Of a stretch of 20,713 nt of DNA, positions 1-9,876 are shown piece after piece. The notes under the pieces were generated by a model. That model was given only the letters and a program-made list of their open reading frames with translations, made no database searches and was not told the DNA's origin. Both the position numbers and the translations under genes were made by a program. How positions within the stretch are numbered: the first letter of the stretch is position 1; each line of letters begins with the position of its first letter. This DNA is from a virus (taxonomy: Duplodnaviria > Heunggongvirae > Uroviricota > Caudoviricetes): the IMG/VR virus record IMGVR_UViG_2703718869_000003, positions 1 through 20,713 of that record; one strand, written 5' to 3'.

Positions 1-28
1 CTGGTCGCTGGTCGCTGGTCGCTGGTCT
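1..28. repeat. Heptamer tandem repeat (CTGGTCG) x3 plus one imperfect copy, truncated by the window edge
   Basis: Seen directly: ctggtcg ctggtcg ctggtcg ctggtct at positions 1-28. Context (coding or not) is unknown because the window starts inside it. Confidence 0.6.
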
Positions 29-210
29 GGCAGCATAAAATCATCCTTTTATGAAAATCAACGTTTTTTGAGCACTCGCACACAAAAAATTACCGCATTG
101 GTTGCAACGACAACCTGCATTTTGCGGAGCATATGACAAATAAAGTACGGGTGCGTTGAGGATGCCAGACACATCAGAGGTGGCGGGAGATTACTCCCCT
201 GCCTGGTCTC

Positions 211-366
211 TTACTTCTCAGATTCGTAGTCTACGAAGACAGCGACCTCCGTCTGGCCGGTTCGGATTCGTACCTCGCAGAAGTCTTTCCTCGTTACCAG
301 TGCTATCACTACGACGGTAATACAGATGACGATCAGGGCGATTAACATCGCCTTTTGCTGCTTCAT
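211..366 (-). CDS. hok: Hok/Gef-family small membrane toxin (type I toxin-antitoxin toxin), 51 aa
   Basis: Not in the ORF track (below its size cutoff). My translation of the minus strand gives MKQQKAMLIALIVICITVVVIALVTRKDFCEVRIRTGQTEVAVFVDYESEK. It has a hydrophobic N-terminal helix and the conserved RKDxCE...Y-E motif, and closely resembles HokD/RelF as I recall it. A GGAG ribosome-binding site lies about 9 nt upstream. Confidence 0.8.
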   Translation of the reverse strand: MKQQKAMLIALIVICITVVVIALVTRKDFCEVRIRTGQTEVAVFVDYESEK

Positions 367-565
367 AGCCTACTTCTCCTTGCCTTTCGGCACGTAAGAG
401 GCTAACCTAAGTTTGTAAGTCATAGATTTGGCCTCAGATTAATGTTAAGCGTCCTGCAAGACGCGTAATGTTAACTGGGGCTTTTCTCTGTCTGCCTTAC
501 GGCTGCATGCCCGAGGCAGACAGCCTCAAGCACCCGCAGCTATTCTACAGTAAAAACTCGCGCTT

Positions 566-991
566 TCAATTTCCCGCACGTCCGGCAAACTGACTGGCCT
601 GTGATCCTGATGGTTCACGCTCAACGTACCTGTCCATTTCCAGCTTTACTCCCTGCATGATCAACATCCCCTCAATAACACCTTCTGCTTTTTGCAGTAC
701 CCGCCCGGCCCAGCAATCAGAGCGCCCATGCTTACGGCCCAGTGACATAAGCGTCATCCCGAACACATAATAATCATACAGAAAATCATGCAAATCGCTG
801 TTGTTGACGTTCAGTTGCGCCATGCAATTGCTGATAATCAGCGCATCGTCATCGGTACACTGAGGCCGTGATTTAACCTTTGACGGGATCAGCCCCTTAA
901 ATCCGGCGGCAATGGGCGACCAGCTCACATCCTCATGATTATTGGCCACCCATGCGCCCCAGCGTTCAAGCACCTGCTGAATATCACGCAT
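566..991 (-). CDS. Q: Late-gene antiterminator Q (phage 82 / DLP12 QuuD type)
   Basis: From the internal Met, [45 protein letters not shown]... is nearly colinear with E. coli QuuD as I recall it. Position after ninG-ninH is canonical. The start is placed at the internal ATG (991) rather than the ORF-track start (1075), which would overlap ninH for about 90 nt. Confidence 0.85.
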
Positions 992-1184
992 CAGAGTCTT
1001 TACCCTTATCCCATCCACGATGGACCATAAGGACACCGTTGACGACGGCGTGCCGTTTGCCTTCTTTATCGCCAATATATTTTCTGACCGTGTTGCGACT
1101 ACAGTTCAGTATTCTGGCTACCTCGGTCTGATTTTCATATGCCTCAACGAGCATGTCAGGAATGGTTTTTACTGTGAACGTCAT
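984..1184 (-). CDS. ninH: NinH-like protein
   Basis: [58 protein letters not shown] matches lambda NinH almost residue for residue from memory. It overlaps ninG by 4 nt and the Q start by 8 nt. Confidence 0.85.
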
Positions 1185-1750
1185 GCGGCCTCACTTCTGC
1201 TGTTTCGCAGGTCTTTAAGTTTCTGCTGATACTTCGCCTTGATCGCCCTGCATTCTTCGACAGTCCAGCGATGGCGGTTATGGTTCGATTCGATTTCGTC
1301 TACTGCTTCCTGCCCGATGCGGTTAATCAGTTCGACGCGATACGGAACGAGATTTCCGCTTTTGTACTGGTTACACACCACGCATTGCTTATGGATATTG
1401 CGTTCATCAAATCTGAGCTGAGGTGCCGCAGCTGTTGTACGGTAATGGCCTGCATCCCACTGGGCTGAATCGAACGTCCCGCATGAAACACACGGCAAAT
1501 GACGGTCCCGCTCCCTGATATAAGCATTCACAGCCTGTTGTGCCTGCTTAATCCAGTAACTGCGGGGCTGTAAGTCCCTCCTGCGCGCTTTCAGCTTGTC
1601 TGCCTGCTCTTTTGCTGAAGCTATCGCCTTTTCTTTTCTGACCAGTTCCAGTGCGCACTGACCACAGCAAACTTTCTGATATGAGCGGAACGGCACAAAC
1701 GAGGAGCCGCACACTTTGCATTTTTTTGGTTTACGTTGCTTCATCATCAC
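1181..1750 (-). CDS. ninG: NinG/Rap-like recombination-promoting nuclease (structure-specific endonuclease)
   Basis: 189 aa with Cys clusters; the segment [30 protein letters not shown]...[65 protein letters not shown] matches lambda NinG as I recall it. Confidence 0.9.
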
Positions 1751-9385: not shown

Positions 9386-9689
9386 TCTGGAGCTTTACAG
9401 CGTCAATGACCTGTTTAGACCCCTACACGTAAACGTGCTGTATCATCGGGTGCGATCCGGTCGATGAGAGAGTATCCCCGCGCGAGAGCGAGAACGGCGT
9501 GAGAACGGGCAACACTGGCAGGAAGTTGGCGCTGACCAATACAGGGAAGGTTTTGGGGTGCAGGCAGCACCGCCAAAGCATTTCCGAGAAAGGATGGTAT
9601 TGACTGCGTGTGATGTCGGGGCTATATTTGGCGAACACCTCATAAAACGGGTGTCGGGATTAGGACCCCGCTGACAATCGAGGCGATAC

Positions 9690-9711
9690 AGACGCGCTAG
9701 CGTCTTTTTTT
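9690..9711 (+). terminator. Rho-independent terminator (tL-like) in the pL leader
   Basis: Stem AGACGC / GCGTCT with GCTA loop, followed by a run of 7 T. Confidence 0.7.
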
Positions 9712-9876
9712 GTATCGACATGCACGCACATCTTATCAATGGTGGGCTGTATGGGGCCGACTTCGGTCGGGCTGGTTCCCTTGATTGCCAGTAGTCCTAA
9801 CCCTGTACAGTCCACCGCCAGCGAGTTTAGGACCTCCGGCGGTGGTTATCAATCACCAATCAAGGAGGCTGCCACC

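Follow-up and report, generated by a model that had tools for sequence, protein, structure and literature searches.

The described systems closest to the locus considered here are the hokW/mokW/sokW genes of the Stx2 phage 933W and the Sakai prophage Sp5 and the archetypal hok/mok/sok genes of plasmid R1. Experimental work on hokW/sokW of Sp5 has established that HokW is toxic and that a 71-nt RNA, SokW, counteracts it, that upon RecA-dependent induction SokW vanishes and HokW is then produced, and that deletion of the locus halves phage release; the cause of SokW removal upon induction was left open by the authors (Takada et al., 2021, PMC8621323). From work on R1, its authors concluded no more than that ribosomes must translate mok “at least up to the hok SD” (PMC9841398).

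The window analyzed here is a stretch of 20,713 nucleotides, positions 1 to 20,713 of the caudoviricete IMG/VR record IMGVR_UViG_2703718869_000003, and by its sequence it carries a genuine hok/mok/sok type I toxin-antitoxin cassette that is ordinary in kind. Megablast delimits window positions 141-548 as a discrete block of homology, 91% identical to Stx phages, the counterpart of which in 933W is annotated as mokW, hokW, and sokW. Homologues of the cassette are present in 4693 of 5426 complete Escherichia coli genomes, the median number being two. The toxin gene and the phage genes upstream of it are arranged as follows.

1181..1750, minus strand: NinG, upstream on the same strand
984..1184, minus strand: NinH, upstream on the same strand
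566..991, minus strand: antiterminator Q, 141 aa, the last pR-operon gene before the cassette (Pfam PF06530, E 8.7e-48)
381-376, minus strand: hok SD, AAGGAG
211..366, minus strand: hok toxin ORF (Pfam HOK_GEF, HokW identity, WP_000813244.1)
211-213, minus strand: hok stop codon

A preliminary description of this DNA had claimed a Hok-family ORF of 51 codons, and this is borne out by the Pfam match given below and by an Rfam match (RF01794, E 8e-27); the ORF is also co-oriented with Q and begins, exactly as reported, 200 bp past the Q stop codon (566-568, against the hok ATG at 366). The encoded peptide of 51 aa, MKQQKAMLIALIVICITVVVIALVTRKDFCEVRIRTGQTEVAVFVDYESEK, matches the HOK_GEF profile (PF01848) over its full length with an E-value of 7.1e-22 and a score of 77 bits, the cut-off being 22. 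It scores below the curated cut-off of the NCBIfam Hok subfamily, as does a HokW-like control peptide. RefSeq holds the ORF as WP_000813244.1, “Hok/Gef family protein,” and the hok gene itself is not new, since identical copies are already annotated under that name. The peptide falls in the HokD/HokW group and is identical to HokW at 47 of 51 positions (92%), the differences being L16I, I19V, T21I, and L29F, among which T21I and L29F are private to the lineage of the window. Position 29 precedes the conserved Cys, where Leu is presumably the residue of R1 Hok, HokA-E, SrnB, and PndA; the window Hok has Phe, a departure that speaks against its activity. The commonest peptide among related cassettes is MKQQKAMLIALIVICLTVIVTALVTRKDLCEVRIRTGQTEVAVFTAYEPEE, and plasmid copies are named “HokD” by PGAP.

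The cassette has the promoter and the RNA elements of its characterized relatives, and these are listed here in terms of the hok-sense transcript.

542..569, minus strand: hok promoter, with -35 TTGAAA (569-564), a 16-nt spacer, and -10 TAGAAT (547-542)
141..535, minus strand: predicted full-length hok mRNA of about 395 nt, beginning at tac and ending a little beyond fbi (from homology over 141-548, the Rfam start at 535, and the fold)
524..535, minus strand: tac element at the mRNA 5′ end, GGGUGCUUGAGG, which pairs with fbi
477..534, minus strand: imperfect 5′ leader hairpin with 21-nt arms (477-497 and 514-534), the first stem of the RF01794 alignment
476..482, minus strand: ucb, mRNA nt 54-60, assigned from its folding partners
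223..237, without strand: perfect palindrome (7+1+7) TTCGTAG-T-CTACGAA, within the 3′ part of hok
149..161, minus strand: fbi element at the mRNA 3′ end, CCUCAACGCACCC, which pairs with tac

The hok promoter agrees with the consensus at 10 of 12 positions and is the sole promoter-like site near hok. Its -35 hexamer (569-564) overlaps the Q stop codon (568-566) and is TTGAAA in all Q-linked copies, with TTGCGG or TTGGCG in other cassettes, and its -10 hexamer belongs to the conserved cassette and is found in unrelated contexts as well. A search for Rfam hok and Sok models, which the preliminary description had proposed, returned RF01794 at 361-535 on the hok-sense (minus) strand with 118 bits (gathering score 59), all model positions from 1 to 157 being matched and the 3′ end of the match reaching the hok SD and start codon. 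Because the match aligns to the hok-sense leader, it certifies the locus and not the expression of Sok. At a permissive threshold, no further Rfam match was found in window positions 1-700, where a plus-strand “sok” match of 16 bits is noise. RF01794 is named “sok antitoxin” and yet models the hok-sense strand, the true Sok strand scoring merely 16 bits; antitoxin strand calls made from this model will be mislabeled.

Folding of the predicted hok mRNA gives -152.5 kcal/mol (z = -6.1 against dinucleotide shuffles), with tac and fbi joined by 12 pairs and one bulge in the minimum free energy and centroid structures alike, so that the fold-back elements looked for in the preliminary description are predicted in both folds. 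Both elements are invariant among about 110 related cassettes, save for the bulged base of fbi, and a compensatory difference separates GGCGC.../...GCGCC of an R1-type plasmid locus from GGGUGC.../...GCACCC of the hokW type. The 9-bp inverted repeat previously noted at 488-496 (CTGTCTGCC) and 515-523 (GGCAGACAG) is exact and forms the core of the longer leader hairpin. A palindrome had also been placed at the hok stop, at 223-235; it is real, but the stated position was 1 nt off and the repeat extends to 237; counted back from the stop codon, it occupies the stretch 10-26 nt upstream, inside the ORF. A predicted helix joins it to the start region of hok (mRNA nt 163-175 with 297-309). At full length, the RNA is predicted to fold with its mok SD base-paired to nt 57-60. 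A version shortened by 40 nt at its 3′ end is predicted to rearrange, nt 53-59 now being bound by tac and nt 125-128 by the mok SD, with the mok AUG lying within a 21-nt loop. This predicted ucb/dcb switch after 3′ trimming reproduces the R1 model (PMC9841398).

The antitoxin is encoded on the opposite strand.

380..408, plus strand: Sok promoter, with -35 TTGCCT (380-385), a 17-nt spacer, and -10 TAACCT (403-408), at the position of the sokW promoter
415..485, plus strand: predicted Sok RNA of about 71 nt, with coordinates transferred from the 933W sokW annotation

The candidate Sok promoter TTGCCT-17-TAACCT put forward earlier stands at the position annotated for the sokW promoter in 933W; its hexamers were correctly identified, and its span is 380-408 in place of the approximate 377-405 first given. 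Its -10 is also the hexamer that was mutated in sokW: in the “pro-less” construct, bases of the -10 were changed, which silenced sokW (Takada et al., 2021, PMC8621323). The identity of this hexamer was deduced from primer YO-421, which replaces TAGGTTAG on the hok strand; TAGGTTAG is the complement of TAACCT, and the hexamer is identical in the window. The promoter is kept in all Q-linked copies. The predicted Sok folds at -27.8 kcal/mol (z = -5.1 against dinucleotide shuffles) into a tail, a long hairpin, and a U-rich end, and its 15-nt 5′ tail is complementary to the mok start region, such that, as far as can be read from the DNA, the putative antitoxin has both a convergent promoter of its own and complementarity to the mok start. 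The segment encoding the mok start and the Sok 5′ tail (window 409-423) is the most variable part of a cassette that is otherwise 91-93% identical, with ATGACTTACAAAC in the window, ATGCTGAACACAT in 933W, and ATGTCACACAACC in the related locus L124; this variability fits a diversifying Sok-target specificity among co-resident cassettes.

The feature that sets the window copy apart is its mok frame.

435-432, minus strand: mok SD, GAGG
370..423, minus strand: truncated mok, with ATG at 423-421, 17 codons (MTYKLRLASYVPKGKEK), and TAG at 372-370, from frame translation

An overlapping mok frame had been expected in the preliminary description, and a mok frame is present; it is, however, in frame with hok and ended by a TAG before the hok ATG. 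The annotation of 933W gives mokW as hokW extended by 19 codons in the same frame, and the 933W sequence has CAG where the window has the TAG (372-370), one codon before the hok ATG and 3 nt away from it. The frame crosses the hok SD before it ends. A degenerate probe fetched 120 IMG/VR cassettes, every one with CAG; a TAG-specific probe fetched 12 IMG/VR loci, all with the same Q and promoter upstream as the window, and found no match in species-representative genomes. As TAG is restricted to Q-linked loci and absent from other cassettes, the allele is, on this sampling of sequences, private to the Q-linked lineage of the window. Elsewhere, hok and mok are both open in 109 of 111 complete cassettes.

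The probable effect of this stop codon can be judged against R1. In saturation mutagenesis of R1, loss-of-function stop mutations were recovered in five of the six mok codons that precede the hok AUG and can mutate to a stop, six being our own count from the numbering of the paper, the main text of which names no individual mok stop mutants. Synonymous A-to-G changes between the hok SD and the AUG were also loss-of-function in that study. By analogy, a stop at positions -6 to -4 may abolish Hok synthesis. The C-to-U change that creates the UAG is, moreover, predicted to strengthen the helix formed by the hok start region with the 223-237 palindrome and to bury the AUG, the predicted probability of which being unpaired is 0.00-0.27 with UAG versus 0.45-0.65 with CAG. 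The mok stop may thus weaken the cassette. Since mok ends at the UAG before the hok AUG, any mok-hok coupling that survives must, from the arrangement of the frames, run by termination-reinitiation.

Q-linked copies are present in 29 E. coli genomes and in IMG/VR loci. The state of the cassette next to Q was compared in 13 such copies, drawn from one phage and a set of complete genomes.

mok TAG, hok intact: 4 copies (L001, L003, L126, L133)
+1 T in hok codon 9: 6 copies (L124, L125, L130, L131, L136, L137)
-1 T in hok codon 30: 1 copy (L132)
fully intact: 2 copies (L134, L135)

Being related, these copies count as about four events and not as independent samples. A generalization from the first nine sampled, that all Q-linked cassettes are damaged (9/9), was withdrawn because L134 and L135 are fully intact. 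Two further TAG copies from IMG/VR, L138 and L140, differ from the window by one base in 408 nt, which is hok Q4*; they are the only complete TAG copies in which the hok ORF is not intact, and a random substitution gives a hok nonsense codon about 1.6% of the time. The occurrence of Q4* on the TAG background hints at selection against residual Hok and suggests that the TAG allele is not fully silent. Taken together, the four independent lesions (mok UAG, hok Q4*, and the +1 and -1 frameshifts) point to repeated loss of Hok at the Q-linked site; by these sequences, decay of the cassette is under way at this locus, and the frameshifted sister copies are to be read as dead. One of them, in E. coli JNEC-KY173 (L132 1630-2101), is a mosaic with flanks and promoter like those of the frameshifted sisters and a mok/Sok-tail segment like that of 933W, which suggests recombination between co-resident hok cassettes.

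The position of the cassette relative to the late promoter bears directly on how it would be expressed. The gene at 566..991 is held in RefSeq as “antiterminator Q family protein,” and its product is 73% identical to Q of H-19B and of Stx1a phages, besides being a distant relative of Q21 (PDB 6P18). The H-19B DNA that begins 28 nt before its Q stop codon has no match adjoining Q in the window; it matches L001, the locus that covers the window’s own prophage and extends beyond the window, at 2612->2303, and the related loci L125 at 1621->1314 and L126 at 1425->888, each time after HsdM/S genes and just ahead of tRNAs or stx. Within this segment, TTTACR-16-TATCAT and an early hairpin are followed, at a distance of about 258 nt, by a second terminator, a geometry that agrees with the mapped pR′-tR′ distance of 258 nt (Sy et al., PMC7547250), and its assignment agrees with the placing of a pR′ primer at the 3′ end of H-19B Q (PMC6266700). 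The pR′-tR′-like unit thus lies beyond the window, about 3.6 kb past hok in the downstream direction, and Q is separated from pR′ by a block of about 3.9 kb that holds hok/sok, a heptamer-repeat tract, an HsdM-family methyltransferase, and an S subunit. As the pR′-tR′ homologue lies beyond this restriction-modification block, hok is, by sequence homology, upstream of the late promoter and hence outside the transcript made by Q-modified RNA polymerase. In L001, tRNA-Ile/Arg/Arg and a SASA esterase come after the unit, and no stx gene does; the StxS small RNA of the Sakai phages derives from such a unit, which is conserved here but parted from Q. In Stx1c- and Stx2b-type prophages, the hok/sok and restriction-modification block parts Q from the late promoter, and “Q-stx” or “pR′” typing, as well as the modeling of toxin expression, should allow for it. 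In the papers searched, nothing was found on hok in Stx1c or Stx2b phages. Steyert et al. (2012, PMC3491183, Fig. 5) depict, for some Stx phages, a methylase between Q and tRNA/stx, as in L001 and L124-L126, and make no mention of hok, a displaced pR′, or the heptamer repeat.

That repeat is a perfect tandem array of the heptanucleotide GCTGGTC (CGACCAG on the gene strand), which occupies window positions 1-27 and runs on outside (L001 5811-6027), between the hok cassette and the co-oriented HsdM-family methyltransferase. There are 31 copies in the window’s own prophage and from 15 to 119 across nine related prophages, always 100% perfect. Start codons are found upstream of the tract (GTG at window position 83 and ATGs 23 and 15 nt before the tract), and these join the HsdM frame at only some heptamer copy numbers; annotators call a “YXWGXW repeat” ORF on the strand opposite to the HsdM frame. 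The tract looks as though it lets a prophage restriction-modification enzyme undergo simple-sequence phase variation, or else gives that enzyme an N-terminal (RPATSDQ)n extension of variable length; no account of it turned up in the papers searched. Elsewhere in the prophage, in its early-left part, the plus strand at window 9635-9822 has two adjacent Rfam matches that exceed the gathering score, isrK (RF01394) at 64 bits and C4 antisense RNA (RF01695) at 79 bits. IsrK controls an anti-Q protein in Salmonella Gifsy-1, and the isrK-like locus could, by analogy, bear on the function of Q in this phage.

That the ORF and its repeats are chance features of intergenic DNA, with no real gene among them, might be entertained for an ORF of 51 codons that falls under a 60-aa ORF track, but it is practically untenable in the face of Pfam and Rfam E-values of 7e-22 and 8e-27, of 91% identity to an experimentally characterized locus, and of homologues throughout the complete E. 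coli genomes counted above, which together refute it. The preliminary description had also raised the prospect that the position of hok, between Q and the expected late operon, makes its expression dependent on Q, for instance by way of the Q-modified late transcript. The gene is indeed co-oriented with Q and 200 bp downstream of it, and related prophages with this arrangement continue into stx2b (04-00955) or stx1c (2013C-3033), so that hok lies between Q and the late genes. The pR′-tR′ homologue, however, is found past hok and the restriction-modification block and matches the 258-nt interval, on which ground Q-dependent expression was rejected; the -10 of the promoter at 542-569 recurs in hok cassettes from unrelated contexts, and by eye this promoter is unlike the H-19B pR′ region, the alignment breaking down after ...GTTGAGCGTGAA. 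Expression under Q is accordingly very improbable. Read-through from the early promoter pR is a different matter: because hok points the same way as the pR operon and a search for minus-strand terminators in the Q-hok interval found none, transcription begun at pR could plausibly continue into the cassette and meet the Sok promoter head-on. The co-orientation of hok with upstream genes in 33 of 41 flank groups, a count for which the ORF caller mis-called 933W, was dropped as support for read-through, phage genes being generally co-oriented and the count thus non-discriminating.

The reading towards which we lean is that 141-569 is a hokW-type cassette that would work by the R1/hokW mechanism, independently of Q, and is attenuated but probably still toxic when de-repressed. 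The promoter overlapping the Q stop codon would yield a hok mRNA of roughly 395 nt, kept inert at full length by the pairing of tac at its 5′ end with fbi at its 3′ end and by the holding of the mok ribosome-binding site on the upstream box. Slow 3′ trimming would free tac to take the upstream box and thereby expose the mok start in a loop, the presumed target of the 5′ tail of the unstable, convergent Sok (415-485, plus strand). Once Sok falls, mok would be translated across the hok SD, and the membrane toxin Hok would be made. With the C-to-T change in the window lineage, mok would stop at the UAG and Hok would be produced solely by termination-reinitiation. The cassette being at the distal end of the pR operon, prophage induction might send read-through head-on against the Sok promoter. 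For the window allele, we infer transcription, processing, reinitiation, toxicity, and read-through from sequence, and toxicity and its neutralization, as known for the 91% identical hokW/sokW, would carry over by homology. The sequences themselves show the family to which the cassette belongs, its full complement of elements, where it stands with respect to pR′, and how the lesions are distributed. Less probable is a toxin-silent remnant, in which the mok UAG would abolish Hok translation and the locus would make only inert hok mRNA and Sok, the latter able at most to cross-neutralize related hok mRNAs from co-resident prophages. The R1 stop mutants, loss-of-function in five of six codons, agree with silence, as do the predicted sequestration of the hok AUG, the confinement of TAG to one lineage and its absence from the 120 IMG/VR cassettes and the species-representative genomes, the frameshifts in sister Q-linked copies, and the lineage-private T21I and L29F; with a median of two cassettes per E. 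coli genome, a Sok-only copy could also have targets. Residual activity is favored, on the other hand, by a mok frame that runs over the hok SD, which is the extent that the R1 authors require (PMC9841398), and by a stop that follows this SD at 3 nt from the AUG, the classic geometry of reinitiation. Q4* as the sole change in 408 nt of two TAG copies would be unexpected were hok already silent, and the variability of the Sok 5′-tail target region argues against broad cross-neutralization. A further reading goes beyond the preferred one and is unlikely: located distally in the pR operon and driven by a stronger, hybrid promoter to which the end of Q contributes, the cassette would be an induction-coupled hok/sok switch, in which early read-through collides with the Sok promoter and releases Hok. 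If this were true, the copy would be unusually costly, which would explain four independent lesions at the Q site against 109 of 111 cassettes intact elsewhere, and the mok UAG would be a tuned-down, reinitiation-coupled allele and not a dead one; it might also explain the removal of SokW on induction, by read-through in 933W from pL past attP in the excised circle.

Whichever of these readings applies, the Q-linked site offers a natural allelic series at one position (intact, mok stop, hok nonsense, and two frameshifts) that is usable for the study of mok-hok coupling in the in-frame (hokW/hokC) class and for asking whether prophage hok contributes to the timing of lysis.

Compared with described systems, the window cassette resembles hokW/mokW/sokW of 933W and Sp5 in its tac, fbi, and hok SD, in the hexamers of the Sok promoter and the Sok hairpin, in having mok in frame with hok, and in its host, a lambdoid Stx-type prophage. 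It differs in location, the 933W copy standing at the far right end of the genome beside L0136-L0142 and the window copy abutting Q; in the mok frame, which is open (CAG) in 933W (Plunkett, 1999, annotation) and closed by TAG in the window; in the -35 of the hok promoter, TTGCGG in 933W versus TTGAAA in the window; and in the mok N-terminus and Sok 5′ tail, which are ATGCTGAACACAT in 933W versus ATGACTTACAAAC in the window. The hokD (relF) gene of the E. coli K-12 Qin prophage reportedly lacks the upstream mok/sok/tac region and is placed after relBE, whereas the window copy has a complete leader. With hok/mok/sok of R1, represented in the sequence comparisons by the R1-type plasmid locus L128, the window shares the pairing of the tac and fbi ends, the ucb/dcb switch, a presumed dependence of hok translation on mok, a convergent Sok with its promoter over the hok SD and start region, and the RF01794 leader match, at least as far as folding and homology predict. 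Identity of the toxins is only about 44%, a figure that refers to HokW against R1 Hok, and the R1-type mok overlaps hok out of frame at an offset of 58 nt, whereas that of the window is in frame with hok at 57 nt and is stopped ahead of it.
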